A DNA stretch of 64,000 bases from an uncultured Schleiferiaceae bacterium (GCA_963977415.1 CAXBOS010000007.1:89851-153850); one strand, 5' to 3'. Positions 9,081 through 54,325 are shown, numbered from the stretch's first letter. A program made the numbers and translations. Notes: generated from the letters alone by a model not told the origin.

Positions 9081-9153
9081 AATATTTGTTTTTGAGTGCT
9101 TTAGGCTATAAAATAAATCTAATTAAGCCTTTCGAGGTTCTAGAAAAGTACTT

Positions 9154-9161: not shown

Positions 9162-9203
9162 CAGCCCTCAAAATTAGAGTTTTAACGTAAAAAATATACA
9201 CAA

Positions 9204-9494: not shown

Positions 9495-9501
9495 TTAGAC
9501 C

Positions 9502-10020: not shown

Positions 10021-10032
10021 AAATTTTTGGTT

Positions 10033-10122
10033 ATGCCAAGTGGTAAAAAAAGAAAACGTCATAAGATGTCAACTCATAAACGCAAAAAGCGTTTACGTAA
10101 AAACCGTCACAAGAAAAAGTAA
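10033..10122 (+). CDS. 29-aa highly basic peptide, ribosomal protein THX-like (not in the ORF track)
   Basis: An ATG at 10033 opens MPSGKKRKRHKMSTHKRKKRLRKNRHKKK, with TAA at 10120-10122. The composition and length match the bTHX-type peptides annotated in Bacteroidota. Confidence 0.55.
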   Translation: MPSGKKRKRHKMSTHKRKKRLRKNRHKKK

Positions 10123-10155
10123 CAGTGGAATCTTTTAGAATCTATTGATTTATTT

Positions 10156-10184
10156 AAGCACCTTATTACAAGGTGCTTTTCGTG
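10156..10184 (+). terminator. Hairpin terminator/attenuator between the THX-like ORF and rng
   Basis: aagcacctt (10156-10164) pairs with aaggtgctt (10170-10178), followed by TTcgtgTTT. Confidence 0.5.
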
Positions 10185-10231
10185 TTTCTGCATAATCTTC
10201 CTATACGAGTATAGGAGTAAAATATATTAAG

Positions 10232-11779: not shown

Positions 11780-11837
11780 TGCTTCGCAAAGCCTTTATAT
11801 TAAAGGGATTTACTAATTTCGATTAATAATCAACAGC

Positions 11838-12671
11838 ATGAAAAAAACATTAGCAATTTTAGGAGCCGTAGTATTACTAGGCTCTTGTGTAAGTAAAAAA
11901 AAGTATACTGAACTACAGGGACAGTATCAAGAAATCGATGGTGAACTAAGTAAGACTCGCATGGAGTTAGCCTCTTGTTTAGATAACCGCAAGAATGCTA
12001 ATAGCGAAATTGAATATCTTAAGAAAACTAATTATCAGCTCCTGAAAAATGTAGGCAATATGTCTACCTTAACTAAGAAAGAAGCCGAAAACTTAGAAAA
12101 ATCTTTAGAGCAAATTCGCGAAAAAGACATGACAATCAGCAGCTTACAAGCCGCCATAAACAAGCGTGACTCCGTAACTTTTGCATTGGTTACTAGCCTT
12201 AAAGGCGCCACTGTCGGCATTAACGACCAAGACATTAGTATTAATGTTGAAAAAGGTGTGGTTTACGTTTCCATCTCCGACAAACTTTTATTTGAAAGTG
12301 GTAGCTCCAAAGTAAGCTCATCGGCCAAAGACGTTTTAGGGAAAGTGGCGAAAGTTTTAAAATCACAGCCTACTTTAGACTTTATGGTTGAAGGCCATAC
12401 CGACAACAAGGCAGCGCGCAATGGTGCTCCTTTCAAAGATAACTGGGAATTAAGTACCCAACGTGCTGCCTCGGTGGTGCGCATCTTAGAAGGCGACTTC
12501 GCCATTAACCCTGCACGTATTACTGTTGCTGGTAAGGGTGAACATGCCCCTGTAGCATCGAACGAGGAAGCTGAAGGTCGCGCTAAAAACCGTCGTACTC
12601 GTATCGTTATTCTTCCAAAATTAGATGAGTTCTACTCATTGATTGAAGAAGGAATGGAAAAAGCAAAATAG
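11838..12671 (+). CDS. OmpA-family lipoprotein with coiled-coil N-domain
   Basis: It has a lipobox (LLGSC). The C-terminal OmpA-like peptidoglycan-binding motifs are GHTDN...NWELSTQRAASV...NRRTRIVILP. Confidence 0.85.
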   Translation: MKKTLAILGAVVLLGSCVSKKKYTELQGQYQEIDGELSKTRMELASCLDNRKNANSEIEYLKKTNYQLLKNVGNMSTLTKKEAENLEKSLEQIREKDMTISSLQAAINKRDSVTFALVTSLKGATVGINDQDISINVEKGVVYVSISDKLLFESGSSKVSSSAKDVLGKVAKVLKSQPTLDFMVEGHTDNKAARNGAPFKDNWELSTQRAASVVRILEGDFAINPARITVAGKGEHAPVASNEEAEGRAKNRRTRIVILPKLDEFYSLIEEGMEKAK

Positions 12672-12694
12672 CATTTTTGAAAGCTCTATAATTA

Positions 12695-12726
12695 AAGGCC
12701 GTCTGCGAAGACGGTCTTTTTTTTTG
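12695..12726 (+). terminator. Rho-independent terminator
   Basis: ggccgtct / agacggtc forms the stem with a GCGA tetraloop, followed by T9. Confidence 0.7.
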
Positions 12727-12891
12727 CCCCTATTTAACCATACTATTTCAGGAACTGTTTCACCTACTTTCCAAAAGCAGTATGGCATATAAGGATAATT
12801 TCAAAATAGTATTCCACCCCTAAAAAACCTTCCCGAGGCCTGATGCAAAAGAGCTAGAATTGGTACCTTCGGGCGAATTAAATAATTGATC

Positions 12892-38010: not shown

Positions 38011-38163
38011 ACACCTTCATCACCATTCACCCTAACACATCAAGACTACACGTAAACACCTTATTACAAGACTTATATACTGAAATGATTGTGAAATACG
38101 ATGAAGCAGAATGAGCCAAAATGCTATATTTGTTTCAGTAATGTTTCAGTAAATTTAAAACCT

Positions 38164-39393
38164 ATGTCCTTTTCAATTCGCTTCGAACTCAACAACAAAG
38201 AAACATCGGACTCCCGCTATCTTATCATGTTACGCTTAACAAAAGACCGTAAGATCAGCAGAATAAAGACCGACCACTTAGTTAAAAAAAACTCTTACAA
38301 CCCTAAAGCTCAATTTGGCAAATGGATAAGAACCAATGAGCCCAGACACGCAATAATAAACGCTGGGTTGAAATCTACACATGATGAACTATTCGACTTC
38401 ATAAGTAAGGAGCTTGAAAAAGGCGACCAAAGCCCTAAAGCGTTAATTGAAAAATTTAAAGGAAGGAATCAACAGCATAAAGAATCTTGGATTCCTTATG
38501 CTAAAAAGCAAATTGACTATTACCGTTCTGTTGGAAAAGACCGTTACGCCATCAAAATGCGCGTAATGACCAAGAAACTTGAAAACTACCTTAACGATAA
38601 AGACTTAGCAATTAGCGATTCAGACCTAGAAATGATTCAAGGCTTTGATGGTTATTTGCGCGAAATAGGAAACGCTCCTAATACGGTAGACGTAAATCTG
38701 AAAATTTTAAAGTTGATCTACCGAAAAGCCATTGATGAAGGAATTGTAGAAAGTCCAAACCTCCATTTTCTAAAATATTCCGTAAAAACCACTTCGGTTG
38801 AACGAGACAAATTAAATCTGACCGAACTAGAAGCCATAGAAAACCTAAACCTTCAAGAAGGAGATTTGATATGGCACGTAAGAAACTATTTCCTTTTCGC
38901 GCTATATATGGGAGGAATCAGATTTGGTGATTTTGTAGAGCTATGCTGGAGTAATATTAAAGATAATGAAGGTCGACTTGATTACCTGATGAACAAAACT
39001 GGTAAGCACCAACAAATGAAGATTCCCGCTAAAGCAAAAACCATTCTGGAAGCTTACAAACCTTTAAACAAAAGCCCAAACAGCTTTATCTTTCCACTAT
39101 TACCTAAAAACTACTTAGAGCAACCAAAAGACAGGAGAATCAAAATATCCAACTCTAAAAACGTGCAAGTAAACAAGTACTTAAAGCAAGTAGCAGAAAA
39201 GGCAGGTATCGAAAAAAATATAAGCTTTCACATAGCTCGACATAGCTTTGCTTACATTGCCTACAGTAAAACCAAAGACCCACTAGCAGTGCAGCATGCC
39301 TTACAGCACTCAAAGCTTAAAGAAACGCAAGAATACATCACCTCCTTGGCAAATGATAGCGAGCGTGATATATTAGGGGAAATTTTCAACTGA
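38164..39393 (+). CDS. int: Tyrosine site-specific recombinase (Bacteroidota phage-integrase family with arm-binding N-domain)
   Basis: The ATG at 38164 gives MSFSIRFELNNKE...YLIMLRLT, an Arm-DNA-binding type N-terminus. The catalytic residues are GGIRFGD (R), HIARHSFAY (HxxR), H in LQHS and Y in TQEYI. Confidence 0.9.
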   Translation: MSFSIRFELNNKETSDSRYLIMLRLTKDRKISRIKTDHLVKKNSYNPKAQFGKWIRTNEPRHAIINAGLKSTHDELFDFISKELEKGDQSPKALIEKFKGRNQQHKESWIPYAKKQIDYYRSVGKDRYAIKMRVMTKKLENYLNDKDLAISDSDLEMIQGFDGYLREIGNAPNTVDVNLKILKLIYRKAIDEGIVESPNLHFLKYSVKTTSVERDKLNLTELEAIENLNLQEGDLIWHVRNYFLFALYMGGIRFGDFVELCWSNIKDNEGRLDYLMNKTGKHQQMKIPAKAKTILEAYKPLNKSPNSFIFPLLPKNYLEQPKDRRIKISNSKNVQVNKYLKQVAEKAGIEKNISFHIARHSFAYIAYSKTKDPLAVQHALQHSKLKETQEYITSLANDSERDILGEIFN

Positions 39394-39476
39394 GCTCTTA
39401 AAACAGATTGATTAGTTACCAAAATTGGAAACATTTGCGAAAGGCTCAAAAAAAGTGACCAAAAAGAATATCGGCT

Positions 39477-40463
39477 ATGCTATCATTTATTGAAAAATTA
39501 AGCAACGTAGAAATAACAGTATATCGATTTTCCAAAATAGGAATTTTTGACATAGTTGATCACCTTCCAAATCAATCACACGAATTTATTGACATAACTT
39601 ACCAGGTGGGAGATTTTTTCCACATCAACTCTATGGCAGTAAAGCTTAACTCGGGACACCTAGAGTCACTGATCTTTCATTCTTTAAGAAAAGAGTTTGC
39701 TCAATGTTCATCCTTGGTAGAGTTCTATCAATTAACAGATTCTCTTATTAGCCGTGACGCGAAAGTGGTGTTCAAACCAAGTCAGTTTAAACTCTACGAA
39801 GAAAATATGAATTGGCACGCATTAATGCCAGGCGCCTTTGCTGACTCTGAGAGAGAGTATCGAGATGTAAAGCAAATAGATTTTGAAACCGCCAAAAAGT
39901 TGTTTGCTGAGAAATCTTCATGGTCTATTGACAATTTGAACAAAAAGGTAAACGAATATTTAAGAGAGCAAGTAGAAGAGTTTATTTCATCTGATGTTTA
40001 TGTGATTTTAGAGCAAAAATTTCTGGAGCAAAAATTTAGGACTGGAAGTGATAGCGAAAAAACACCCTCGACAAATAAGCCAGAACTAGAAGAGCATGAT
40101 GCAAGCTTATTTCTTGAACTAAATCAAATGTCACTCTCTCAAAGAAATAGCACCATAAATGATTTATTCGATTTTTTAAAAGAGACTGGATACTTACTTG
40201 AGGAAGTAACAAAGTTTCAATTCAATAGCTTATTTAACCCCGACGCTACAAATCCAGCAAACCTTAACTGGCAGGGAAGTATCAAAACATTAGGGTTATT
40301 TGCGAAGTACCTTCCCATTACTAATGAAAACCCTCTAGTTGCTGTTGCTTCTAGATTTTACCAAAAAGGTAATAAAATTAATAATAGACAACTTCTGAAC
40401 AATGGTCGAAATGCCGTTACCGAGGGTGAGAAACGTCTTGTTACATTTTTACAGAATCTTTAA
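39477..40463 (+). CDS. Hypothetical protein (island-borne, no recognisable motif)
   Basis: This is a 328-aa ORF with a central acidic/coiled segment. It lies between int and the HTH gene. Confidence 0.45.
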   Translation: MLSFIEKLSNVEITVYRFSKIGIFDIVDHLPNQSHEFIDITYQVGDFFHINSMAVKLNSGHLESLIFHSLRKEFAQCSSLVEFYQLTDSLISRDAKVVFKPSQFKLYEENMNWHALMPGAFADSEREYRDVKQIDFETAKKLFAEKSSWSIDNLNKKVNEYLREQVEEFISSDVYVILEQKFLEQKFRTGSDSEKTPSTNKPELEEHDASLFLELNQMSLSQRNSTINDLFDFLKETGYLLEEVTKFQFNSLFNPDATNPANLNWQGSIKTLGLFAKYLPITNENPLVAVASRFYQKGNKINNRQLLNNGRNAVTEGEKRLVTFLQNL

Positions 40464-40670
40464 GTACACTAATGATTCTTCCTTTCTCATGTAGTTTTTA
40501 TTAGAATCAATCTTTTTCTAAAGCACTACAGGCTCAAAGTATACATATCACTCTACACATGTAGGCACTTCTTTTAATAGCTTCAACCTTTCCTTCACAC
40601 TTTTGACCTGTCAATCCATCGATTGATAAAGATTGGGCCCGATCTTTTAACTATTTAAAACCTCTAAAAA

Positions 40671-40886
40671 ATGACAGGTTTAAATTTAAAAGAAGATCAA
40701 CTTCTTACCGCAGCCGATGTGGCTAGAATTTTAGGAGTGACCAAAAGAACGGTCATGACCTACAAAGCAAATGGAACGCTCCCCTATTATCAGCGAGGGC
40801 GAGTATTAAGATTTCGACCTGCAGATGTTGAAAAGCACATCGAGGAAAATATGGTTCAACCTCAAAATTATGCCTTATGCGGTTAG
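40671..40886 (+). CDS. Excisionase-family / MerR-like helix-turn-helix DNA-binding protein
   Basis: The sequence LLTAADVARILGVTKRTVMTYKANGTLPYYQRGRVLRFRPADVEKHI shows the HTH_17 pattern. Confidence 0.75.
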   Translation: MTGLNLKEDQLLTAADVARILGVTKRTVMTYKANGTLPYYQRGRVLRFRPADVEKHIEENMVQPQNYALCG

Positions 40887-42142
40887 AACTAGTGAAAATC
40901 ATGGACTCCGACCTTGATGCTCTAATGGAGTTTATTGCAGCAAAAAAAAGTGGCGCATCTTTTGGCGAAGCCGTATATGAAAAGTTGCCCCCAATTTTAA
41001 GTAAGCACCTTGCCTATTTTGAGTCTGATCATGAAAAGGACTTTTATTTACTAGGGCTTATTCCAGCAATAGGGAGCATTATTCACAATACTCACTTTAC
41101 CTATAGAGGCGGAAAGAGACAACATGCCAACCTAAATGTTATTATAGGCGCACCAGCCGCCAGTAATAAATCAATAATCATGCTAGTGAATCATCTATTC
41201 GATACAATTGAGGAAGGTGATGACAGCTTTAGAATCCCTGGAGACATAAGCAGTGCAGGATTAAATAAGATTCTGCATAGCCAAGATGGTAAAGGCTGCT
41301 TAATTGAATCTGAAATAGACACGCTTGCAGGCTCTATTGAGAATCAACAATTTGGAGATTTTTCAGACGTGCTTCGTAAAGGCTACGAAAACGAAACGAT
41401 CTCGAAATTTCGCGCAACCGAAGAGACGCCTTTGATTGTTGAAAACCCTCGTTTTAGCATGGTGCTATCTGGAACACCCGAACAAGTAAAACGACTAATA
41501 CCTAATTACGAAAATGGGCTTTTCAGTAGGTTTTTCTTTTATAACCTAGAAGGAGTAAATACATGGCAAGATTGGAATCCTGAGGAAAAGCAAGTTGATA
41601 ATATGGATGAGCTAAAAAGTGATTTAGCCTTTTTGGGTAACGCTTTATACAAATTACAAGGTAAGCCCAGCTATATGATTCACAGCCTCAAAGCAGCTAA
41701 ACTAGTTAACCATGTTGCGCGTGAGTGGGCAAAAATTTATTCACACGATATCGGATTAAGGCCTTCGCTTTTTAGAGGCGTAACAATGGCTTTAAAAATC
41801 GCCACCAGTTTAAGCTTCCTAAGAAGACTTACGCCAGTAGGGTTTTCAGAGGACAACACTATCCACACAGACGATTTAGTAGCTGCTCTAATGATGGTAA
41901 GCGTGAGTCTAGCAAATGCTTCTCAACAAATAAATATTGCTAGAAGCAATTCGATACCCTATAAGCTCCGTATGTTTTACGACTTACTTCCTAAAAAACG
42001 TGAATTTGCATCAAGTGAGGCAATATCCTTGAGTCAGGAGCACATGGATTTACAGCGCAGGATGACATATATCCACCTGAACGATTTAGTAGGTCTCGGT
42101 ATGGTTAAAACACCTAAGAAAGGCGTTTGGTACTGTACCTAA
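40877..42142 (+). CDS. DUF3987-like (YfjI / primase-helicase-associated) protein
   Basis: It has the motifs LPPIL, ANLNVIIGAPAASNKS (degenerate P-loop), IESEIDTL and PRFSMVLSGTPEQ...GLFSRFFFY. An alternative start is at 40901. Confidence 0.6.
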   Translation: MRLELVKIMDSDLDALMEFIAAKKSGASFGEAVYEKLPPILSKHLAYFESDHEKDFYLLGLIPAIGSIIHNTHFTYRGGKRQHANLNVIIGAPAASNKSIIMLVNHLFDTIEEGDDSFRIPGDISSAGLNKILHSQDGKGCLIESEIDTLAGSIENQQFGDFSDVLRKGYENETISKFRATEETPLIVENPRFSMVLSGTPEQVKRLIPNYENGLFSRFFFYNLEGVNTWQDWNPEEKQVDNMDELKSDLAFLGNALYKLQGKPSYMIHSLKAAKLVNHVAREWAKIYSHDIGLRPSLFRGVTMALKIATSLSFLRRLTPVGFSEDNTIHTDDLVAALMMVSVSLANASQQINIARSNSIPYKLRMFYDLLPKKREFASSEAISLSQEHMDLQRRMTYIHLNDLVGLGMVKTPKKGVWYCT

Positions 42143-42182
42143 ATACTAGTGCATAATTTGCACGTAGTGCACAACAATAAGA

Positions 42183-42210
42183 AGCCTCAGGTAACACTGG
42201 GGCTTTTTTA
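42183..42210 (+). terminator. Rho-independent terminator
   Basis: agcctcag (42183-42190) pairs with ctggggct (42197-42204), with one G-U pair, followed by T6. Confidence 0.6.
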
Positions 42211-42447: not shown

Positions 42448-43899
42448 ATGTTTGAACAGACCTTTAAAAATATAGACGACATACTCCATAAAGACGCAGG
42501 CTGTGGTAGTGAATTAGATTACGTCGAACAGACCTCTTGGGTGCTCTTCTTAAAATATTTGGACGACTTAGACCGTGACCGAGCTACTTCCGCTGAACTC
42601 TCAGGAAAGTCATACTCACCCATTATTGACCAAGAATACCAATGGAGTATTTGGGCAGCTCCAAAATTAGCGGATGGAAAAATTGACCACAATGCGCTGA
42701 CAGGTGATGACCTTTTGGACTTTGTAAACGGAAAATTATTTCCTTACCTCAAGAAATTTAAACTGTCAGCTGAAAATGCAGATACCATTGAATACAAGAT
42801 TGGCGAGATTTTTAGCGAATTGAAGAACCGTATCCAAAGTGGCTACAATTTGCGAGAAGTGATTAACCGCATTGCCGAGTTGCGTTTCCGTACTCATGCG
42901 GAAAAGCACGAAATGAGCCATCTGTATGAAGACAAAATAAAAAACATGGGTAATGCAGGGCGAAACGGTGGTGAATACTATACGCCAAGACCGCTTATCA
43001 CTACAATAGTAAAAGTGGTTAACCCAACAATTGGCGATAAAATTTATGATGGTGCTGTGGGTTCTGCTGGCTTCTTGTGTGAAGCGTTTGACTATCTGAA
43101 ATCAGGCAAGGAACTAAGCACCAAGGAATGGGAAACTTTGCAAAAAAGAACATTCTACGGCAAGGAGAAAAAATCATTAGCCTACATCATTGGCATTATG
43201 AATATGATTTTGCACGGTGTGGAAGCGCCCAATATCATACACACCAACACGCTTGCCGAAAACTTGGCCGACATACAAGAAAAAGACCGCTACAATGTGG
43301 TACTTGCCAATCCGCCTTTTGGTGGAAAGGAACGTGCCGAAGTGCAACAAAACTTCCCCATAAAAACAGGCGAAACGGCTTCCCTCTTTTTGCAGCACTT
43401 CATTAAAATTTTGAAAGCAGGCGGCAAAGCAGGCGTGGTGATTAAAAACACCTTTTTAAGCAATACCGATAATGCCAGTGTTGCCTTGCGAAAAGAGCTA
43501 TTACAAAACTGCAACCTGCACACTGTTCTAGATTTACCAGGGGGCACCTTTACAGGTGCAGGTGTAAAAACCGTGGTGCTGTTTTTTGAAAAAGGCAAAG
43601 CCACCCAAAAGGTTTGGTTTTACTCGCTTAACCCAGGTCGCAATTTGGGCAAGACCAATCCGCTCAACGAAAAGGATTTGGAAGAGTTTGTTGAATTACA
43701 ACAGACTTTTGGGGATAGCGAAAATTCTTGGTCGGTAAACATCAAAGACATCGACCAGAGCACTTTTGACCTGAGCGTAAAAAACCCCAATACACCAGAA
43801 GCCGACCCACTGCGTCAACCCCAAGAAATTTTATCAGCAATAAAAGCCTTGGATGATGAAAGTGCGGAAATCCTAAACTCAATTTCGGAATTGATATGA
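42448..43899 (+). CDS. hsdM: Type I restriction-modification system, methyltransferase subunit
   Basis: It has the HsdM N-domain (ELDYVEQTSWVLFLKYLDD), the AdoMet motif DGAVGSAGFL and the catalytic NPPFG. Confidence 0.9.
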   Translation: MFEQTFKNIDDILHKDAGCGSELDYVEQTSWVLFLKYLDDLDRDRATSAELSGKSYSPIIDQEYQWSIWAAPKLADGKIDHNALTGDDLLDFVNGKLFPYLKKFKLSAENADTIEYKIGEIFSELKNRIQSGYNLREVINRIAELRFRTHAEKHEMSHLYEDKIKNMGNAGRNGGEYYTPRPLITTIVKVVNPTIGDKIYDGAVGSAGFLCEAFDYLKSGKELSTKEWETLQKRTFYGKEKKSLAYIIGIMNMILHGVEAPNIIHTNTLAENLADIQEKDRYNVVLANPPFGGKERAEVQQNFPIKTGETASLFLQHFIKILKAGGKAGVVIKNTFLSNTDNASVALRKELLQNCNLHTVLDLPGGTFTGAGVKTVVLFFEKGKATQKVWFYSLNPGRNLGKTNPLNEKDLEEFVELQQTFGDSENSWSVNIKDIDQSTFDLSVKNPNTPEADPLRQPQEILSAIKALDDESAEILNSISELI

Positions 43900-45158
43900 A
43901 CGAGAATTGGGAAAATTTAAAGTTGAAAAATATCTTTTCCAAGATTAATGGTCTTTGGACAGGAAAGAAAGAACCTTTTGTAGAAGTCAAAGTCTATACA
44001 ATGACAAACTTCACAAAGGATTCATTTTTAAATAAAGCAAAGGAGCCCAGAGAAGTAGTTGCCAGCCTTTCTCAGTTTGAGAAAAGAAAGCTACAAAAAG
44101 GAGATATTCTAGTCGAAAAATCAGGTGGTGGACCTAATCAGCCAGTTGGTCGAGCGGTATTGTTTGATATTGATAATGATGAAAACAATACGTTTAGCAA
44201 TTTTACAACAAGGCTAAGAATTAACGAGAATTTCACTGACAAAGTCTACCCGAATTTTATACATCACTTCCTTCGTTTAAAATACATAGATGGTGAAACC
44301 GAGAAGTTTCAGAAGAATTCAACAAACATCAGGAACTTACAACTTGATGAATATCTAGAACAGTCGTTTTCTTTCCCACCACTCCACCAACAACAACGCA
44401 TTGTTTCCATTTTAGACCGTGCCTTTGCCGCCATAGATAAGGCCAAAGCGAATGCGGAACAAAACCTCCAAAACGCCAAAGAGCTTTTTGAAAGCTACTT
44501 GCAGGGGGTGTTTGAGAAAAAGGGTGATGGTTGGCAAACAAGAACATTATCCGACTTAGTGGATGAAGAGTGCAAGCTTTCTTATGGTATAGTGCAACCA
44601 GGACAGGACTATCATGATGGTTTACCGGTTGTTAGGCCTACTGATTTATCGACCAGATATATTAAAAGGCAAGGATTAAAGTTAATCGACCCAAAATTGG
44701 CTGAAGGTTATAAAAGAACCAAATTGATTGGAGATGAATTATTGCTTTGTGTTCGAGGCAGTACGGGAGTACTTTCAATTGCAACGGAAGAATTAAAAGG
44801 TGCAAATGTTACAAGGGGTATTGTCCCTATTCGATTTAATTTAGAGCTGATTGACCAAGAATTCGGTTACTATTTACTGATTTCAAATTTTGTTCAAAAT
44901 CAAATTAGAGCGAAGACTTATGGTGCTGCTTTAATGCAAATTAATATTGGTGATTTAAGAAAAATTGAAACACCGTATCCAAAATCACTAAATGAGCAAC
45001 AAACCATCGTTCGAAAATTGGATTCCCTACGAACAGAAACGCAAAAGTTGGAAGTGATGTATCAAAAGAAAATGGATGATTTAGAAGAACTGAAAAAATC
45101 TATTTTGCAAAAGGCATTTGCAGGTGAGTTGGAAACTGAAAAAGCGTTTGCAGTATGA
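43896..45158 (+). CDS. hsdS: Type I restriction-modification system, specificity subunit
   Basis: It has two target-recognition domains separated by conserved helices (LHQQQRIVSILDRAFAAIDKAKANAEQNLQNAKELFES and NEQQTIVRKLDSL...LKKSILQKAFAGEL). It has an ATGA overlap with hsdM. Confidence 0.85.
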   Translation: MNENWENLKLKNIFSKINGLWTGKKEPFVEVKVYTMTNFTKDSFLNKAKEPREVVASLSQFEKRKLQKGDILVEKSGGGPNQPVGRAVLFDIDNDENNTFSNFTTRLRINENFTDKVYPNFIHHFLRLKYIDGETEKFQKNSTNIRNLQLDEYLEQSFSFPPLHQQQRIVSILDRAFAAIDKAKANAEQNLQNAKELFESYLQGVFEKKGDGWQTRTLSDLVDEECKLSYGIVQPGQDYHDGLPVVRPTDLSTRYIKRQGLKLIDPKLAEGYKRTKLIGDELLLCVRGSTGVLSIATEELKGANVTRGIVPIRFNLELIDQEFGYYLLISNFVQNQIRAKTYGAALMQINIGDLRKIETPYPKSLNEQQTIVRKLDSLRTETQKLEVMYQKKMDDLEELKKSILQKAFAGELETEKAFAV

Positions 45159-46990
45159 AAGTAAAATTAAGCCAAGCAGTCAAAATGTTTTTTGGAAACT
45201 CATCACTAGAGATGGTTTTCTTTGAAGCTATTGCTAACGCTCTAGATGCAAATGCAACGGAAATCCAAATTAAGATTTCGGTAAAAGCACTGAATCAACC
45301 TGAGACACTTCAATTTGAAATTTCAGATAATGGAGAAGGTTTTACAGATGAACGATATAGTAAGTTTTCTAAACTATTTGATGTAGACGAAAGCACCCAT
45401 AAAGGTTTGGGGAGATTGGTATATCTCTGCTACTTTGAAGATGTCCAGGTCAGCAGTTATTTTGATAAAACTAAAAGAAGAACATTTGATTTTTCAGAAG
45501 GGTTTGAGGCGGAAAAGTTCAAAGTTGAAAAAGTCAATGAACAGGCATCTGGCACTAGCTTTAAAATGACCAACTATGTTTTGCAAAAAGTTGCAAAATC
45601 AGATTATATCCAGCCTAAAAAAATCAAACAACGTGTATTAGAAGAGTTTTACGCAAGACTATTTCAACTGAAAAAGCAAAAGAAAAGTATCAAAATAAGC
45701 ATTAGCTCTGCAGTTGATGGTAATAGCTCGAATATCAATATTGAAAATAGCGATATACCTGAGTTTACCGCCCTCGAGTTGCAAAGTTCAATGAACCTAA
45801 TTGATAAATTTCTTTTGTATTACTCTATTACAGAAGTTGATCCTGAAGATTCATCATTAATCGCAGCTATATCTGTTGATAATAGAACTGTAAAGGTAGA
45901 TTTGATTTCAAACGAGAATCTTCCGCTTGGATATGAAATGGTTTTCTTGCTTTATTCTGACTATTTCACGGGTAAAATTGACGCGGCAAGACAAAACTTA
46001 ACCATCTCATCACATGAGCTTAAGGAAATCCAAAAGATTTTTCGACAAGAAGTAGTATCGCTGATTGAAAGTAAAATCCCCAAAATAAAAAAGCGGAATA
46101 ACGACGTAAAAAAGAACCTAGTAAATCGCTTTCCTCACCTCAGTGGCTATTTTGACACTCAAAATATTGGGTACGTTTCTCGTTCAGAAATTTTAAAAAA
46201 GGCACAAGAGGATTTTTTTAAGGAGCAAAAAGAGGTCTTGGATGCAACAAGTCTGAGTGATGAACAATTTGAGAAATCGCTAGAATTATCTTCAAGAGCA
46301 TTAACTGAATACATTCTATTTAGGCAACTAACCATAGAAAAACTAAAAAAATCTACAAACTCAAATAGCGAAGCAGAACTACATAAGCTTTTTGCCTCTA
46401 TGCGAAAAGATGGAAGATTTGAAAAGCAGGATTCAGTTGATGATTTATATAGAAACAATGCGTGGTTGTTAGATGATAAATACATGACATATGAGACTAT
46501 CCTAAGCGACAGAGAAATGGGTGAACTATTGCAAGTTATAACGGATGAGGAAGAAGTTTCTGACGAGAATCGACCCGACATTGCTTTGATATTTTCAAAT
46601 AATCCTGATAACAAGAAACCTTTTGACGTTGTAATAGTGGAACTTAAGAAAAGAGGCATTTCGCTAGAAGAAAACATGAAGGTCATAACTCAATTAGAAA
46701 AAAGAGCTAGGCGGTTAATGCAGCATTATAACAATCAGATTCAGAGGATTTGGTTTTATGGAATTATTGAATTTAGCGAAGATGTAGAAATGCAATTAGC
46801 GGGCGAATACACAGAGCTTTATTCTTCAGGTAAAATGTATTATCGAGAAACTAATGTTGCTATTTCATTGAATCCAAAAATCACCCTTCCTATAGGTGTA
46901 TTTATTTGGGATTTAGATGCTGTAGTAAATGATGCTGATTCCAGAAACTCGGCATTTTTGAATTTGATCAAAAATAAATTCAAACAGTAA
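45155..46990 (+). CDS. Uncharacterised GHKL (Bergerat-fold) ATPase fused to a PD-(D/E)xK nuclease-like domain, embedded in the type I R-M operon
   Basis: The N-terminal GHKL motifs are EAIANALDANA (E-x3-N-x2-D), SDNGEGF and KGLGRLVYL. The C-terminal nuclease-like motifs are EAELHKLF, NAWLLDD, RPDIALIF, VVIVELKKRG and QLEKR. It has an ATGA overlap with hsdS and a TAATG overlap with hsdR. Confidence 0.6.
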   Translation: MKVKLSQAVKMFFGNSSLEMVFFEAIANALDANATEIQIKISVKALNQPETLQFEISDNGEGFTDERYSKFSKLFDVDESTHKGLGRLVYLCYFEDVQVSSYFDKTKRRTFDFSEGFEAEKFKVEKVNEQASGTSFKMTNYVLQKVAKSDYIQPKKIKQRVLEEFYARLFQLKKQKKSIKISISSAVDGNSSNINIENSDIPEFTALELQSSMNLIDKFLLYYSITEVDPEDSSLIAAISVDNRTVKVDLISNENLPLGYEMVFLLYSDYFTGKIDAARQNLTISSHELKEIQKIFRQEVVSLIESKIPKIKKRNNDVKKNLVNRFPHLSGYFDTQNIGYVSRSEILKKAQEDFFKEQKEVLDATSLSDEQFEKSLELSSRALTEYILFRQLTIEKLKKSTNSNSEAELHKLFASMRKDGRFEKQDSVDDLYRNNAWLLDDKYMTYETILSDREMGELLQVITDEEEVSDENRPDIALIFSNNPDNKKPFDVVIVELKKRGISLEENMKVITQLEKRARRLMQHYNNQIQRIWFYGIIEFSEDVEMQLAGEYTELYSSGKMYYRETNVAISLNPKITLPIGVFIWDLDAVVNDADSRNSAFLNLIKNKFKQ

Positions 46991-49317
46991 TGAACGAAGC
47001 AGAAACTAGAGCAGAACTTATTGACCCGAAGCTAAAAGCTTGTGGATGGGGCGTTTTAGAAGGCTCTAAAGTACTGCGTGAGCATCACATAACTGATGGT
47101 AAAATTCAATCAGGAGGTGGTCGTGGCAAAAAGATAATTGCAGATTACATCTTGGTTCATAAAGGTATTAAGCTTGCCGTAGTTGAAGCCAAAAGTGACG
47201 ATTTAGAAGTAGGCGAAGGTGTAATGCAAGCCAAGCAATATGCTGAGAAACTGCAATTAGAAACCACTTACAGTTCCAACGGAAAAGCCATTTACCAAAT
47301 CTGCATGAAAACAGGCGAAGAAGGTTTGGTGTCAGACTATTTAAGCCCCGAAGAACTTTGGAATAAAACTTTTGCCGAGCAAAACGATTGGAGAGAAAAA
47401 TTTGCAGATGTCCCCTTTGAAGATAAAAGTGGAACTTGGCAATTGCGTTACTATCAAGAAATAGCGGTTCAGCGTGCGCTTGAAGTCATAGCAGCGGGAA
47501 CAGATAGACTACTACTGACACTTGCAACTGGAACAGGAAAAACGGCCATCGCTTTTCAAATTGCATGGAAGCTGTTTCAAACCCGTTGGAGCTTGCAAAG
47601 AGACGGCAGTCGCAGACCAAGAATTTTGTTTTTAGCAGACAGAAACATTTTAGCTAATCAAGCATTCAACTCATTTTCATCATTTCCCGAAGATGCTTTG
47701 GTACGGATTAAGCCCAGTGAGATTAAGAAAAAAGGAAGAGTGCCAACTAATGGCAGTATCTTCTTTACTATTTTTCAAACTTTCATGAGCGGTACGGATG
47801 AAGAAGGAAAACCAGCACCCTATTTTGGAGAATATCCCAAAGACTATTTTGATTTCATCATTATTGACGAGTGCCATCGTGGCGGAGCAAATGATGAGAG
47901 TAATTGGCGGGGTATTTTGGAGTATTTCAGCCCTGCAGTGCAATTGGGTTTAACCGCTACACCCAAGCGAGATGACAATGTGGACACCTACAAATACTTT
48001 GGCGAACCTGTTTACATCTATTCACTAAAAGAAGGCATCAATGATGGTTTCTTGACGCCTTTCAAAGTAAAGCGCATCAAAACCACTTTAGACGATTACC
48101 GCTACACTTCTGATGACACCATTGTGGAAGGTGAAATTGAAGAAGGCAAATTGTATGAAGAAAAAGACTTTAATCGAAGCATTGAAATTGTAGAACGGGA
48201 AGCTAAGCGAGTAAACGTTTTCTTGGAAGAAGCAAACCAAGACGAAAAGTCCATCATATTTGGAGCAAATCAAGCTCATGCGGCTTTGCTAAGAGATTTA
48301 GTAAACCAAAATGCTAAAAGCAAAGACCCTTTTTATTGTGTTCGTGTAACTGCCAATGATGGAGAAGAAGGCGAAAGACTATTACGCGAATTTCAGGATA
48401 ACGAAAAGACCTTACCAACCATTTTGACAACTTCGCAAAAGCTTTCAACGGGAGTAGATGCGCGGAACATTCGCAATATCGTTTTGCTTCGCCCAGTTAA
48501 TTCAATGATTGAGTTCAAGCAGATAGTTGGTCGTGGCACTCGCCTATTTGACGGCAAAGAGTTTTTCACCATTTATGATTTTGTAGATGCTTACAAACAC
48601 TTTTCAGACCCTGAGTGGGATGGAGAACCTTTAGAGCCTGAACCTAAAGAACCTAAAGCTTATCCAACTCCTGAGACTAAAGACAAACCAGATGTTGAAG
48701 ATCGTGATGACCTTAGACCCAAAAAGAAAAAAGCTCGGGTAAAACTGAGAGATGGAAAGGAAAGGACTATCCAACATACCGTTCAAACTTCATTTTGGAG
48801 TGCGGATGGTAAACCTATCTCCGCAGAAGAGTTTTTGAATAATCTATTTGGAGAACTCCCCAAGCTATTCGCAAACGAAGAAGAGTTGCGGAAGCTTTGG
48901 AGCAATCCTCTCACGAGAAAAACATTATTAGAAAAATTGGATGCCGCAGGCTTTCCAAAAGACGATTTACTGACTTTACAGAAGTTAGTGGACATGGACA
49001 AAAGCGATTTGTATGACGTGTTAGAGTACGTTTTCAATGGCGACTATATCGCGATGACTCGAGAAGCCAGAGCAAAGGCAGCAGAAGCGACCATATTTGC
49101 TCTACTCAATGACAAACAGAAAGAATTTCTTGCCTTCGTTTTAAGTAAATACGTTGAAACAGGCGTTGATGAACTCGACCAAGAGAAACTCCCAATCTTG
49201 CTAACCAACAAGTACCAGTCACTAGAAGATGCCAAAGAAATATTAGGAGACGTAGCAAATATCAGTCGATTGTTTATTGACTTTCAGGAGCATTTATACA
49301 ATCAGAAAGTCGCGTAA
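46990..49317 (+). CDS. hsdR: Type I restriction endonuclease, R subunit (EcoEI-like C-terminal domain)
   Basis: It has the N-terminus MNEAETRAELIDPKL, the nuclease motif DYILV...VVEAK, the helicase motifs TGTGKT, DECHRG and LTATP, and the C-terminal FLAFVLSKYVETGVDELD. Confidence 0.9.
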   Translation: MNEAETRAELIDPKLKACGWGVLEGSKVLREHHITDGKIQSGGGRGKKIIADYILVHKGIKLAVVEAKSDDLEVGEGVMQAKQYAEKLQLETTYSSNGKAIYQICMKTGEEGLVSDYLSPEELWNKTFAEQNDWREKFADVPFEDKSGTWQLRYYQEIAVQRALEVIAAGTDRLLLTLATGTGKTAIAFQIAWKLFQTRWSLQRDGSRRPRILFLADRNILANQAFNSFSSFPEDALVRIKPSEIKKKGRVPTNGSIFFTIFQTFMSGTDEEGKPAPYFGEYPKDYFDFIIIDECHRGGANDESNWRGILEYFSPAVQLGLTATPKRDDNVDTYKYFGEPVYIYSLKEGINDGFLTPFKVKRIKTTLDDYRYTSDDTIVEGEIEEGKLYEEKDFNRSIEIVEREAKRVNVFLEEANQDEKSIIFGANQAHAALLRDLVNQNAKSKDPFYCVRVTANDGEEGERLLREFQDNEKTLPTILTTSQKLSTGVDARNIRNIVLLRPVNSMIEFKQIVGRGTRLFDGKEFFTIYDFVDAYKHFSDPEWDGEPLEPEPKEPKAYPTPETKDKPDVEDRDDLRPKKKKARVKLRDGKERTIQHTVQTSFWSADGKPISAEEFLNNLFGELPKLFANEEELRKLWSNPLTRKTLLEKLDAAGFPKDDLLTLQKLVDMDKSDLYDVLEYVFNGDYIAMTREARAKAAEATIFALLNDKQKEFLAFVLSKYVETGVDELDQEKLPILLTNKYQSLEDAKEILGDVANISRLFIDFQEHLYNQKVA

Positions 49318-49553: not shown

Positions 49554-50375
49554 CTAAAAGCTAAAGGATAGCTCACTTCTTGAAGAATCGTCCCATATGA
49601 ATTTCCACTTTATTATTGAATCTTTGGGACGATTGCGATTCTGTTCAACCACTCCAACTCTTAGCAGGTCAAGATGGTATTTATGTTCGTGCTTTTTTAC
49701 TTTAAATAATGACACAGCTCGGCAAAAAAGATTTTTATCGACATATTCTGCCTTTAGACCAAAGTTGATTAGTCTTAATTTTGATCCAACACTTGGATAT
49801 GCTATTGCATCCATATTCTCACCATGAAGCAATATTTTTGTAAAAGCGATTGTATGCAAGTACTCCTCTAACGTTTCTGAATCTGCCCTTTTCGTAAAAA
49901 ACGTTGTAATCTGTTTTTCAATCTGCTCATCTCTTGAGGTCGGAAATTCGTATTTAGACATTAGTTCTCGAAAATTAGGATTTTGCCTTAACAGAGGTAT
50001 TCCTGCAAATTGGCATGTAGCAATTTCAGCATCTTTTTTAGGTGCGAAATCTCCAACGAGAAGGAAATCACCATCCTTTGGGTTCAATTCATGAACAGTA
50101 GCTTCAAGCGAGTTAGAACCATAAAATAAACTTTCACCATAAAAATGACACCTTCCTATCGTTTGGGATTCAAAGTCCAAAAATGATTGATCACGGTACC
50201 AAATAGATGAAACGCTATTTATGGTGGGAATTTCTGACGCTGAAATAACTCTAGATCTAAATATGCCTTCAAAGTTATTTAACCAAGTCATGGGTCTGTT
50301 GTGGCCTATAATCGCATCAGCATAATAGGCGTGCAATTCATCTAGAGCTTGCTTCTCTTTTTCTCTTGCTTTCAT
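49554..50375 (-). CDS. RES-domain protein (putative NAD+-targeting toxin), no cognate Xre antitoxin gene adjacent
   Basis: It has GRCHFYGESLFYGSNSLEATVHEL (R75, E96) and YLHTIAFTKILL...MDAIAYPSVGS...INFGL (S195), which fits the R-E-S pattern. Confidence 0.55.
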   Translation of the reverse strand: MKAREKEKQALDELHAYYADAIIGHNRPMTWLNNFEGIFRSRVISASEIPTINSVSSIWYRDQSFLDFESQTIGRCHFYGESLFYGSNSLEATVHELNPKDGDFLLVGDFAPKKDAEIATCQFAGIPLLRQNPNFRELMSKYEFPTSRDEQIEKQITTFFTKRADSETLEEYLHTIAFTKILLHGENMDAIAYPSVGSKLRLINFGLKAEYVDKNLFCRAVSLFKVKKHEHKYHLDLLRVGVVEQNRNRPKDSIIKWKFIWDDSSRSELSFSF

Positions 50376-50533: not shown

Positions 50534-51985
50534 TTACTCAACATGCAGCTTGGGCGTAAATCCTAACACCTCATTAAATTTAATACTGACAGCCGCTTTA
50601 ACTTCTTCTGCCATCGATTGCGGCACTAAAAATGAGTCGTGAATGGTGAATATAGGCATGTCAGTAAACTCTTCTTGTAGGTGTGGTACCAAGTGCTCGA
50701 AAACCAATTTAGATTCAATAGACTGCATCATGTGGGCTAACTTATTTGGGGCCTTACGCTTGATAATATCAAAAAGGTGCACCACGTTAGGGAATGCTCT
50801 TACAAATAGTTTCTTCTCAATTGATAGTCTTTTTCTCCCCTCTGTCGGGAAACCAAAAAAAGCTGTGAAGATTGTGGCTTTAATTATCTTTCGATCAACT
50901 TCAGTTAACCCTAACCTTTCTGCAAAATATTCATAAAACTTCCCTTCTCGTGTAGTGTTCACAAAGCTCTGTATGTCTTCACTGTAAAGGGGTATAGCTT
51001 CTTTTGTTAAAATAAGGGTGTTAGATAAGTGGGGAGAAGAATAAGAAGAAGGTAAGTAAGAAGAGGTGAAAAGATCTTTAACGCGTTTTTTGCTATGGCT
51101 TGTTTGCCATACAGGTTGAGGATTAGAACTTAAATTTTGGGCATTTGGCATGTGATATTGCGTCTGACTAATATTTGGATGCCAAGATCTATAGTCTTGG
51201 AATCGAATCGACTTTAAATTTTTGTAATTGATGATCGAATCCGACTGCCAAAATTTTGGCTCAAACAATAACGACGATAACATGGGCTGTGAGTTAACAA
51301 AATCAATGTTACTTAGTGGTTCGCCATTCCAACGGAGAAACTGCCTTAAATCGGTACTTAAATTAGTTAGATTGGTATGCAGCCTACCATAATCATCCCA
51401 GCTACTAAAAAAGTGACCATCACGGATGTACTCTACAGAGATCTTTCGTTGTGAATACTTGTGATACGCTGTTTCAGCGTTGAGCAGTTGATCCTTTTCA
51501 AATTCTTTTTTTATAAAATCAATGGCTTCACTGTAACACATGGTCAAGCTGCCATTGAAATACTGCAGAATATCAAGATTAGTCTCTCCCTTTTGCACCT
51601 TACTTTTGATAAAATCGGTACGAATTTTCACAACTTTACTCCAAAAACGATTATCAGGCGCTTTTAATACTTCCAAATCTGTCCAGTATTTTTCTTTAAA
51701 TCGAAATTTTCGCGCTTTACTTTCACTATAGCTTGTGCACTCAATCACACCCGCCTTCAAGAAGTACTCTCTGTAGTCCTTAAAGTCTCGCACACCATAC
51801 TTTTGGAGCAATTGACTACTAATTGCAACATAGCCACTTTCTTCATCAAGATTTCTTCTCGAAACCCTCAGCGCAGTAAGCAAGTGAAGTAAATAGAGTG
51901 CTTTATCGTAGTTGAAGTTGAAATTCGGCTGATTTTCACTTATTAGCTGCTCTAATTTTAAATTATTAGGTAAAAATGTTTTCAT
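50534..51985 (-). CDS. Minimal family-A (Pol I / T7-like) nucleotide polymerase-like protein with N-terminal putative DNA-binding region
   Basis: GRLHTNLTNLSTDLRQFL compares with TGRLSSTDPNLQNIP...IRQAF. Motif A is DFVNSQPML (compare DYSQIELR), motif B is RKIIKATIFTAFFG (compare RRxAKxxNFGxxYG) and motif C is FTIHDSFLV (compare VHDE / T7 RNAP IHDSFG). Confidence 0.55.
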   Translation of the reverse strand: MKTFLPNNLKLEQLISENQPNFNFNYDKALYLLHLLTALRVSRRNLDEESGYVAISSQLLQKYGVRDFKDYREYFLKAGVIECTSYSESKARKFRFKEKYWTDLEVLKAPDNRFWSKVVKIRTDFIKSKVQKGETNLDILQYFNGSLTMCYSEAIDFIKKEFEKDQLLNAETAYHKYSQRKISVEYIRDGHFFSSWDDYGRLHTNLTNLSTDLRQFLRWNGEPLSNIDFVNSQPMLSSLLFEPKFWQSDSIINYKNLKSIRFQDYRSWHPNISQTQYHMPNAQNLSSNPQPVWQTSHSKKRVKDLFTSSYLPSSYSSPHLSNTLILTKEAIPLYSEDIQSFVNTTREGKFYEYFAERLGLTEVDRKIIKATIFTAFFGFPTEGRKRLSIEKKLFVRAFPNVVHLFDIIKRKAPNKLAHMMQSIESKLVFEHLVPHLQEEFTDMPIFTIHDSFLVPQSMAEEVKAAVSIKFNEVLGFTPKLHVE

Positions 51986-52575: not shown

Positions 52576-53415
52576 ATGAACTTACGAAAAGCTAATCGAG
52601 GGCACTCGAAAATAAAATGCGCTTTACAAGGCCCAAGTGGCTCTGGTAAAACCTATTCAGCCCTATTAATGGCTAGAGGATTATGTGATAGCTGGAATGA
52701 AGTAGTCGTTATTGATACGGAAAATAACTCCGCTGATCTGTACTCACATCTTGGTGATTACAATGTATATGATCTTAGACCACCTTTCACCCCTGAAAAC
52801 TATATTAAAGCTATTCAGGACTGCAAAAACGCTGACATGAAGGTTATCGTCATTGATTCACTTTCACACGAATGGGAGGGTTCTGGTGGTATACTTACCA
52901 CGCATAGTGCTATGGCAGGTAACTCCTTTACCAATTGGTCAAAGTTAACTCCACGTCATAATGCCTTTGTCAATACTATTTTACAAACGGACTGCCACAT
53001 TATTGGTACGCTACGCACGAAACAAGACTACGTTCTTACAGAGAAAAATGGTAAGCAAGTTCCTGAAAAAGTGGGTTTAAAATCAATAACCCGTGACGGT
53101 ATGGATTACGAATTTACTGTGGTTTTTGATTTAGATATCAAGCATCAAGCAGTTTCCTCTAAAGATCGTACTGGGCTATTTGCCAAAACGCCTCAATTTG
53201 AAATAAACACCAATACAGGTGAAATTATTCGTGCTTGGTGCGGTAAAGCTCTTACTAGCGAGGAACTGCAACTAAAGATTGATGAAACCTTTGATTTAGA
53301 AGAGCTACGACTTCTTTATAGCCAAAATCCTCAGCATCAAAACGAACTCCAAAATTATTTTTCTAAACGACGCATTGAAATTCAAGAAAATGGAAATACT
53401 ATCCCTCAAAACTAA
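52576..53415 (+). CDS. AAA_24 / Sak4-like RecA-fold ATPase (phage-type)
   Basis: It has Walker A LQGPSGSGKT and Walker B VIVIDSLSHEWEG. Its length of about 280 aa matches phage Sak4-type proteins. Confidence 0.65.
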   Translation: MNLRKANRGHSKIKCALQGPSGSGKTYSALLMARGLCDSWNEVVVIDTENNSADLYSHLGDYNVYDLRPPFTPENYIKAIQDCKNADMKVIVIDSLSHEWEGSGGILTTHSAMAGNSFTNWSKLTPRHNAFVNTILQTDCHIIGTLRTKQDYVLTEKNGKQVPEKVGLKSITRDGMDYEFTVVFDLDIKHQAVSSKDRTGLFAKTPQFEINTNTGEIIRAWCGKALTSEELQLKIDETFDLEELRLLYSQNPQHQNELQNYFSKRRIEIQENGNTIPQN

Positions 53416-54325
53416 CGAAGGCTTTATAGAAGCCAACACACAATCTATCGATCTTCCTCTTTTACAAGAGCAAACGATTATACCTGCTTTTGCAAAAGAC
53501 AACGAGTCTACTATTAGCCATATTGACTTTGTAGAAAATGTATACGAAGCAGTAAGTCACGTGTTTCCCACTGAATCCATATCTGAGCCTACTGTAAAAG
53601 TATCTCACCCTATTAGAGGCAGAGTGCCAGAAGCGAAAGGAAAGCCCGCTAAAGAGCTTCTAGAGCATGAGAAAACCCTCTATTACGAGCGTATGGCCTT
53701 CATGATTGAAATACCGAGTATACAGGCTAAAATTGGTGACGATAGAATCTCACTTAGTGTAGGTGGCGTAAGGGCTTACAACCTAGAAAACCTCTACAAC
53801 AAGAAGAGCCCTGAGAAATTTAAAATCTTTATTGGTTTTAAAAATTGGGTATGCACGAATCTATGCGTTTCCACGGATGGTTTTTTATCTGATTTAAGGG
53901 TAAGCTCTCTCCATGATCTAATGGAAAAAGCTGTAAATCTCTTTCAGTCCTTCAATATTGATCGCGAAGTGCAGCAAATGCAACAAATGCAACGCACTCA
54001 AATAGACCATGAGCAATTTGCCCACATTATTGGACGAGCAAAGCAGTATTTAAATCTACCCAAGGATTTAAAAGCTACGAAGGAAAATTTCCCTTTAGGA
54101 GACAGTCAGCTTAGCCAGATGATTCGTGAGTACTATCAAGCAGGTGATGAACCCACAATTAACCTTTGGGACTTTTACAACCTGATGACTTCTGCGAATA
54201 AAAGCAGCTATATCGACTCTCATGTAGATCGTGTGGTTGAAAGCTTTCGCTTTACTCAAAGCCTAGGGAATTCGCTAGAAAACCAACTACCCAACTGGTA
54301 CACTCATTCCATTTATAATAACTAA
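53390..54325 (+). CDS. DUF932/DUF3871-like phage/plasmid protein
   Basis: It has the motifs HPIRGRVPEA, TLYYERMAFMIEIP, LSVGGVRAYNLENLY and FKIFIGFKNWVCTNLCVSTDG. The family assignment is from memory only. It overlaps the upstream gene by 26 nt (41 nt if it starts at 53375). Confidence 0.4.
   Translation: MEILSLKTNEGFIEANTQSIDLPLLQEQTIIPAFAKDNESTISHIDFVENVYEAVSHVFPTESISEPTVKVSHPIRGRVPEAKGKPAKELLEHEKTLYYERMAFMIEIPSIQAKIGDDRISLSVGGVRAYNLENLYNKKSPEKFKIFIGFKNWVCTNLCVSTDGFLSDLRVSSLHDLMEKAVNLFQSFNIDREVQQMQQMQRTQIDHEQFAHIIGRAKQYLNLPKDLKATKENFPLGDSQLSQMIREYYQAGDEPTINLWDFYNLMTSANKSSYIDSHVDRVVESFRFTQSLGNSLENQLPNWYTHSIYNN

Follow-up and report, generated by a model that had tools for sequence, protein, structure and literature searches.

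The stretch of DNA analyzed here (the window) comprises 64,000 nucleotides (nt) from an uncultured Schleiferiaceae bacterium (GCA_963977415.1, CAXBOS010000007.1:89851-153850) and contains, on the plus strand, a type I restriction-modification (R-M) operon in which an additional gene, called X throughout, lies between hsdS and hsdR. The R-M set itself is complete and intact as judged with Pfam and PADLOC: hsdM (42448-43899) encodes a 483-amino-acid (aa) protein that matches N6_Mtase (8e-62) and HsdM_N as well as the PADLOC model MTase_I (2.7e-161); the 420-aa HsdS (43896-45158) matches Methylase_S in two stretches (4e-22) and PADLOC Specificity_I; and hsdR (46990-49317) encodes a 775-aa protein of the EcoEI_R_C type with ResIII, EcoEI_R_C, SWI2_SNF2, and HSDR_N matches (PADLOC REase_I, 1.9e-131). 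X (45155-46990) encodes a 611-aa, paraMORC3-like protein with a GHKL ATPase, a transducer-like middle domain, a helical linker, and a PD-ExK nuclease-like domain. A previous reading made from the sequence only (the sequence-only reading) had described four genes joined by ATGA, ATGA, and TAATG overlaps and an X of 611 aa, and the coordinates of the open reading frames (ORFs) and the sequence agree with this: the 4-nt ATGA overlap of hsdM and hsdS is deduced from the ORF coordinates, whereas ATGA at 45155-45158 (hsdS/X) and TAATG at 46988-46992 (X/hsdR, a 1-nt overlap) can be read directly. In the translation, the N-terminal nuclease motif of HsdR (…ADYILV…VVEAK…, that is, D…ExK) also looks intact, and since HsdR retains this motif of its own, X is not a substitute for a dead nuclease.

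The N terminus of X is a real GHKL (Bergerat) ATPase fold, as had been proposed. Both HATPase_c (35.4 bits; cutoff, 26.4) and HATPase_c_3 (28.9 bits; cutoff, 25) match residues 17 to 102 in Pfam, and this core (45203-45460, plus strand, aa ~17 to 102) contains E24-x3-N28 (motif I, with E24 encoded by GAA at 45224-45226), D31, the motif II residues D58-x-G60-x-G62 within D58-N-G-E-G62 (from 45326), and the motif III residues G84-x-G86 within K83-G-L-G-R-L88. When an AlphaFold2 (AF2) model of full-length X (predicted local distance difference test score [pLDDT] of 70 overall and 70 to 90 over the middle domain) was searched with Foldseek, the ATPase modules of Hsp90, PMS1, MLH1, GyrB-43K, and SMCHD1 were matched with E values of ~1e-10 to 1e-11, over 350 to 430 columns and with target-normalized TM-scores of 0.56 or less (0.49 to 0.56 for the N-terminal domain of PMS1, 3h4l; 0.54 for MLH1, 4p7a; and 0.42 to 0.48 for GyrB 43K). 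The comparison with MutL, MORC, Hsp90, and SduA structures that had been suggested earlier recovered MutL/Hsp90-type modules for the full-length model and, among the best 50 PDB rows for the C-terminal model, no SduA structure. Because alignments of this length exceed the ~100-residue GHKL core, a transducer-like second domain is predicted to follow the core, as in MutL, MORC, and gyrase B; the S5 fold of this domain is judged from the alignment lengths, which were given without per-residue ranges. Based on the Foldseek matches and the AF2 secondary structure, this putative transducer/S5-like, beta-rich domain corresponds to 45461-46010 (plus strand, aa ~103 to 285, approximate limits) and contains the conserved residues R244 and R279. 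It is followed by a long helical linker (46010-46360, plus strand, aa ~286 to 401) with AF2 helices at 286 to 307, 309 to 325, 343 to 362, and 369 to 401, in which Y386 and R390 are 100% conserved. At the sequence level, a phmmer search with X and a search with the family profile against PDB sequences returned only subthreshold matches to the N terminus of PMS2 and none for the C terminus.

X belongs to a large family. Among 8,000 word-filtered candidates there were 1,718 matches, and an exhaustive search gave 718 clusters at 50% identity (E of ≤0.001); among the full-length representatives listed, the length of 610 to 650 aa is kept down to ~26% identity. X and 92 full-length representatives of the 50%-identity clusters, which are 24 to 56% identical to X, were aligned with MAFFT (n = 93). 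In the ATPase domain, N28, D58, G60, G62, and G84 are 100% conserved and E24 and G86 are 98% conserved; in the C-terminal region, the same holds for E406, D440, S451, P474, D475, E496, and K498 (100%) and for H410 (98%). Such conservation at this degree of divergence indicates that both putative catalytic centers are under strong purifying selection. All of the X motifs picked out by the sequence-only reading lie at the codons it had assigned to them, and their conservation goes beyond chance; Q513 is invariant only in closer relatives and falls below 80% across the family.

Public records name members of this family (P0037, P0080, P0061, and P0032) "sensor histidine kinase," "ATP-binding protein," "arsenate reductase-like glutaredoxin family protein," and "UPF0332 family"; the last two names seem to be mistakes or to have been carried over from adjacent genes. 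A sensor histidine kinase is what P0037 and P0080 are called in NCBI/UniRef, and weak, subthreshold NCBIfam matches to the ATP binding regions of kinases point the same way. We nonetheless reject this annotation as almost certainly wrong, because X has no HisKA or dimerization-histidine domain in Pfam, no response regulator is found among the most frequent neighbor families, the best structural matches are to Hsp90, MutL, and GyrB modules with a transducer domain, and a PD-ExK motif is present at the C terminus.

This C-terminal domain (46370-46987, plus strand, aa ~406 to 611) contains, in order, E406-A-E-L-H410, N435-AWLLD-D441, R473-P-D475, VVIVE496-L-K498, and Q513, and hence the ordered set E406, H410, D440, P474-D475, E496-x-K498, and Q513 of a putative PD-(D/E)xK nuclease. 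When it was modeled alone with a deeper alignment, AF2 gave a pLDDT of 79 and a predicted template modeling score (pTM) of 0.77, with strands at 475 to 480 and 490 to 497, a helix at 504 to 524, and a strand at 529 to 538. D475 opens one strand, E496-x-K498 ends the next, and Q513 is located in the helix after that; this strand-strand-helix-strand order fits the canonical PD-(D/E)xK/restriction endonuclease core, so far as the model goes. The PD-(D/E)xK signature reported by the sequence-only reading is thus borne out by invariant residues (n = 93) and by the predicted core topology. Opposite the linker and this domain, an antisense ORF of 175 codons (46159-46686, minus strand) lies wholly within X; its translation is rich in Ser, Phe, and Leu, and the ORF is most probably no gene but a side effect of the AT richness of the coding strand.

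The further claim that the C terminus strongly resembles DUF4263/Shedu did not hold up: no match to Shedu was obtained by Pfam, PADLOC, Foldseek, or profile searching. PF14082 (DUF4263) was not matched by X at an E of ≤1 or by 10 of the most distant family members at an E of ≤0.1; the PADLOC v2 SduA models matched neither X nor the distant members, and the NCBIfam Shedu model did not match X. In three large searches, none of the relatives listed carried PF14082 in its precomputed annotation, and neither a Shedu nor an EndoMS structure was found among the best 50 PDB rows obtained by Foldseek with the C-terminal model. Searches of 5.8 billion proteins, made once with the C-terminal domain of X alone and once with a profile of 38 sequences, recovered only its own family, mostly as gene fragments, and none of these relatives had a Pfam annotation, so that no bridge to DUF4263 was found. 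The nuclease domain of X is not detectably DUF4263, and hence X is not filed as Shedu. A possible but doubtful account of these data is that the 718 clusters constitute a distinct GHKL-nuclease defense family whose nuclease is not the Shedu core but is convergent with, or a deeply diverged parallel to, that of the Vibrio cholerae protein VcSduA, and that the subclade embedded in type I operons may have acquired a functional link to the type I enzyme, such as the sensing of a stalled or inhibited HsdR.

To place X in a genomic context, we surveyed 79 loci from distinct species with homologues 38 to 87% identical to X. Most of the species belong to the Bacteroidota, and the rest include Proteobacteria, Ignavibacteria, Acidobacteria, and Spirochaetes. 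Probing with HsdM, HsdS, and HsdR of the window showed type I-like genes (M, S, or R) within ~8 kb in at least 19 of these 79 loci. The gene order hsdS-X-hsdR recurs (in L003, L004, L006, L010, L012, and L015 and also in L092 and L161), but only among the closest homologues, of ~72% identity or more; among immediate neighbors classified with Pfam, Methylase_S is found upstream in 6 of 69 cases and an HsdR-type protein downstream in 5 to 6 of 63. Two loci (L007 and L051) have the order hsdM-X-hsdS; in the former, from Sinomicrobium weinanense (8001-14045), the X homologue is 78% identical, and a 973-aa NACHT domain protein follows. More distant homologues have other partners. In a Chitinophagaceae metagenome-assembled genome (L063, 5109-11950; 44% identity), a gene for an EcoR124-type HsdR is followed after 1 nt by X and after ~9 nt by a GmrSD-plus-DUF5655 type IV enzyme, so that neither the type I family nor the partner is that of the window. 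In L050 and L052 (9836 onward; 54 to 55% identity), X is followed without a gap by a Type ISP/MmeI-like methyltransferase-specificity protein, and this gapless junction suggests translational coupling to another R-M class. A type IIG enzyme precedes X in L013, X-MTaX1 is found in L061, and other homologues adjoin housekeeping genes. The family is therefore enriched near several R-M classes and is not tied to type I systems or to this slot; an embedding in type I loci, for which a homologue survey had been proposed, recurs but is not obligate (6 of 69 upstream neighbors).

These distributions bear on the idea, put forward by the sequence-only reading, that X is a guard of the kind known from PrrC, inactive while bound to the type I enzyme and freed when that enzyme is disabled by a phage antirestriction protein, of which Ocr, ArdA, and Stp are examples. 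Its premise is correct in that prrC occupies the hsdS-hsdR slot in the EcoprrI locus (PMC12707154), and the 4-nt and 1-nt overlaps of X with hsdS and hsdR, together with the recurrence of the same gene order in the closest homologues, would suit such an arrangement. However, HsdS is an upstream neighbor in only 6 of 69 cases and a type I HsdR a downstream neighbor in 5 to 6 of 63 across the 79 species, both active sites are retained outside type I contexts in homologues with as little as 38% identity, and the partner R-M type varies between EcoEI-like, EcoR124-like, Type ISP, and type IIG. Moreover, X shows no homology to PrrC, and VcSduA, the single-gene system that is described below, acts alone. 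With hsdS-X-hsdR limited to the closest relatives and the family mostly elsewhere, we regard a guard function as unlikely, and the contents of the slot in sister operons, to which we turn now, argue in the same direction.

A second survey started from HsdR and covered 80 metagenomic loci (L082 to L161) with HsdR proteins 76 to 94% identical to that of the window; 56 of these loci show hsdS upstream. In 3 of these 56 loci the slot is empty, with hsdS abutting hsdR, and in 3 it contains X; the remaining ~50 slots contain 0.3 to 3.8 kb of other genes. This cargo includes PADLOC candidates (PDC-M30A/B, PDC-S02 [a Schlafen AlbA_2-plus-HATPase_c_4 protein], and PDC-S23), ATPases and NTPases (AriA/OLD-like ATPase-TOPRIM, AAA_13, and KAP NTPase), and, furthermore, GmrSD, Fic/DOC, RhuM, DUF4062-plus-STAND proteins, PHP, PDDEXK_3, NucS_C/YhcG_C-type nucleases, and IS200 transposases. 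Several occupants have no Pfam match, for example, a 296-aa ORF at L090:2678-3565, and one slot (L130, 707-4595) contains two cargo units, with an X homologue followed by a 179-aa ORF and a 496-aa Schlafen AlbA_2-plus-HATPase_c_4 protein. This EcoEI_R_C-type family of type I systems has a cargo slot at the hsdS-hsdR junction, in which X is one gene among many. That X is cargo follows from the variable contents of the slot (X in 3 of 56), the low GC content of X, and the presence of the family in other contexts. For the guard proposal the slot has two sides: AAA_13 ATPases, which we take to be the family that includes PrrC and RloC, are found in it, but so are dozens of unrelated genes.

The sister operons also speak to a second proposal, in which X is an integral accessory subunit of the R-M enzyme, its GHKL-plus-S5 engine remodeling or looping the DNA that separates the recognition site from the cleavage site and its C terminus adding a second nuclease beside the SF2 helicase-nuclease HsdR. 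Such a role was proposed by Iyer et al. for MORC and paraMORC proteins (PMC2292703), and it would be in keeping with the repeated adjacency of X to several R-M classes in varied gene orders, with the at least 19 of 79 loci that have type I-like M, S, or R genes within 8 kb, and with the translational coupling of X to hsdS and hsdR. On the other hand, 53 of the 56 sister operons, whose HsdR is 76 to 94% identical to ours, have no X, so the type I enzyme does not need it, and many X homologues have no R-M neighbor, as was noted for standalone paraMORC3 (PMC2292703). We therefore consider an integral accessory subunit improbable.

With regard to its wider setting, the R-M operon sits in an integrative element or island, as it follows genes for a tyrosine integrase, an HTH_17 protein, and a DUF3987 protein. 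This mobile-element backbone (38101-42142, plus strand) consists of the integrase gene (38101-39393), an ORF of unknown function, the HTH_17 gene (~40671-40886), and the DUF3987 gene (40877-42142), as judged from ORFs and from Pfam calls precomputed for a TARA Oceans scaffold (L001) that is identical to the window. Between the DUF3987 gene and hsdM, a strong terminator-like hairpin with a 12-bp stem and a T-run (42179-42208, plus strand) is the upstream limit of the R-M transcription unit, and a scan of 42448-49317 found no comparable hairpin inside the operon. A scan for sigma-70 promoters gave no more hits than expected from shuffled sequence, the consensus being uninformative for a Bacteroidota-type host. 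The GC content of X is ~34%, compared with 41 to 43% for the conserved parts of hsdM and hsdR, and hsdS is intermediate (37 to 38%); this is consistent with an origin of X, and possibly also of the target recognition domains of hsdS, different from that of the R-M core. No tRNA gene was found in the whole 64-kb window, which rules out a tRNA in this stretch as the attachment site. Just 3' of hsdR, two convergent ORFs are found on the minus strand, 49554-50375, whose 273-aa product has a weak RES domain match (E of 7e-4; 20.1 bits, below the cutoff of 23.2), and 50534-51985, whose 483-aa product has no Pfam match; both may be further island cargo, perhaps toxin-like. Beyond the operon, precomputed Pfam annotation places AAA_24 and DUF3871 genes at 52576-54325, and a 1,528-aa CHU_C/type IX secretion protein, indicative of a host among the Bacteroidota, is encoded near the operon.

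A mobile setting raises the question of whether X serves defense at all or instead has a selfish or maintenance function for the island, for instance, insertion of X into the slot by its own nuclease activity or postsegregational killing, or is a MutL-like repair factor. Besides the integrase in the island, the GC content of X below that of its flanks, the IS200 transposases that also fill the slot in sister operons, and the non-R-M role suggested for standalone paraMORC3 (PMC2292703) would fit this. Against it stand the other slot occupants, which are overwhelmingly defense-type genes or PADLOC candidates, the antiphage activity of the closest tested architecture (VcSduA), and the lack of any antitoxin or repair partner conserved beside X. 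A nondefense function thus seems very unlikely to us.

Taken together, we favor, with a probability of roughly 0.6, the reading that X is a self-contained, ATP-gated antiphage or antiplasmid nuclease that acts autonomously and is carried as cargo in the type I operon. By analogy with GHKL enzymes and VcSduA, ATP binding would dimerize the N-terminal domains of X into a clamp, formed with the transducer domain and helical linker, and the ATPase cycle would license the C-terminal PD-ExK domain to cut foreign DNA. X would have been inserted into a recombination-tolerant slot, would be cotranscribed and cotransferred with the R-M genes on the integrative island, and would add a second layer of defense that does not need the type I enzyme. 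Autonomy is favored because both active sites are kept in contexts without type I genes, because sister operons do without X, because HsdR keeps its own nuclease motif, and because VcSduA and TgvAB act alone.

Several observations weigh against an autonomous nuclease. The predicted nuclease fold rests on motifs and topology, with no significant structural or profile match, and the C-terminal part of the full-length AF2 model is of low confidence. Foldseek searches with the C-terminal model against PDB and BFVD (viral) gave no match at an E of ≤0.001, the best E value being 0.075; the weak top rows (McrC, the Avs3 nuclease domain, EcoO109I, Cap4, and RPB5, the N-terminal domain of which we take to be classed in the PD-(D/E)xK clan) would suit a PD-(D/E)xK-like fold but are no proof of one. 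When the 38-sequence C-terminal profile was searched against PDB sequences, the only nuclease matches were to EndoMS/NucS (including EndoMS 5gke); these were subthreshold, with an E of ~1, and cover the ExK strand and the helix. An hhalign comparison of the C-terminal profile with NucS_C-type ORFs from sister operons gave a nonsignificant probability of 11%, with a sensible register that places VVIVELKK and Q513 opposite VVELKK and GQIQRY. As for autonomy, roughly one-quarter to one-third of the family members adjoin some R-M gene, and this adjacency could mean functional cooperation and not just colocation. Likewise, the tight translational coupling of X with both hsdS and hsdR, in the window and in L010, is compatible with stoichiometric coproduction and so with a physical partnership.

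If X is indeed an autonomous, ATP-gated nuclease, the candidate defense repertoire gains a large branch of GHKL-nuclease proteins, mostly from Bacteroidota, that is missed by PADLOC v2 and Pfam DUF4263 and for which public records give no other names than "ATP-binding protein" or "sensor histidine kinase." The most useful lead from this work is the slot: the hsdS-hsdR junction is filled in ~50 of 56 cases by interchangeable defense cargo and can serve as a hunting ground for new systems and as a test bed for the cooperation of embedded genes with the R-M enzyme. The embedding of defense genes in type I operons has already been documented, for PrrC, the Campylobacter jejuni Rlo genes, and TgvAB, and Shedu genes are known from R-M loci as well.

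Among these systems, PrrC is similar to X in its location, as it is coexpressed from between hsdS and hsdR of a type I operon (EcoprrI, type IC). However, PrrC is an ABC-type ATPase joined to an RNase that acts on tRNA-Lys and is masked by the type I enzyme, whereas X combines a GHKL ATPase with a DNase-type PD-ExK domain; no AAA_13 or PrrC-like match was found in X with Pfam, PADLOC, or NCBIfam, and in contrast to the dependence of PrrC on the type I enzyme, the X family is mostly found outside type I loci. The V. cholerae tgvAB pair is likewise embedded in a type I R-M cluster and on its own gave protection against phages, and GmrSD also fills the slot in sister operons of the window, but the TgvAB proteins (DUF262/DUF1524, with a modification-dependent mechanism) are unrelated to X. 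In MutL, MORC, GyrB-43K, and Hsp90, a GHKL core is combined with a transducer fold as in X (Foldseek E of ~1e-10), and MutL also joins its ATPase module to an endonuclease; X lacks the C-terminal metal binding endonuclease domain of MutL and the MORC-specific S5 motif and has a PD-ExK domain instead.

The sequence-only reading had considered the domain combination of X unnamed. While a defense role remains plausible, this part has to be given up, as paraMORC3, Shedu type 1D, and VcSduA share the combination. Iyer, Abhiman, and Aravind (2008, Biol Direct 3:8; PMC2292703) defined paraMORC3 by a GHKL domain, an S5 domain, and a conserved C-terminal restriction endonuclease fold domain with E-D-ExK motifs, and noted its lateral mobility, its sporadic distribution, and its prevalence among Proteobacteria and Bacteroidetes; some paraMORC genes were found in R-M neighborhoods, while the nuclease-bearing subset was often standalone, and a non-R-M role was proposed for standalone paraMORC3. 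X resembles paraMORC3 in having intact GHKL motifs followed by an S5/transducer-type domain and a globular E-D-ExK domain, and the X family is also centered on Bacteroidetes and Proteobacteria, sporadic, laterally mobile, and in part R-M linked and in part standalone. There are also differences: profile searches with the C-terminal domain of paraMORC3 recover RecB family nucleases (PMC2292703), whereas X gives only subthreshold NucS/EndoMS matches, and the hsdS-hsdR slot occupied by X is not singled out in that paper.

VcSduA (A1552VC_00276) is a single gene that protects V. cholerae against T1-like phages, and defense is abolished by E27A in the ATPase or K557A in the nuclease (PMC12137116, Nat Microbiol 2025); its authors tabulated 543 homologues and stated that VcSduA-like proteins were formerly called paraMORC3. 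The Shedu type 1D architectures include GHKL (HATPase_c_3) with an Hsp90/MORC-like middle domain, and 602 Shedu genes are located inside R-M loci, type I included (Gu et al., 10.1101/2023.08.10.552793). Like these proteins, X combines a GHKL ATPase, a clamp-like middle domain, and a C-terminal PD-(D/E)xK domain in one protein of ~600 aa; set side by side by architecture and motifs, the motif I Glu E27 of VcSduA corresponds to E24 of X and the nuclease Lys K557 to K498. VcSduA is found in defense islands and Shedu often in R-M loci, and X is found likewise. The nuclease domain of VcSduA is reported as DUF4263, whereas that of X is not recognized by Pfam PF14082, PADLOC SduA, or NCBIfam. A distant relation of the two domains is possible, since EndoMS, the subthreshold profile match of X, is the structural reference used by Gu et al. 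for the active site of Shedu (10.1101/2023.08.10.552793), and X may be either a divergent sister of VcSduA or a convergent fusion. In summary, the domain combination seen in X is already named, having been predicted in 2008 and validated in VcSduA in 2025, so that X opens no new category; it fits paraMORC3 by the published definition and, by its architecture, is an analogue of VcSduA and Shedu type 1D.

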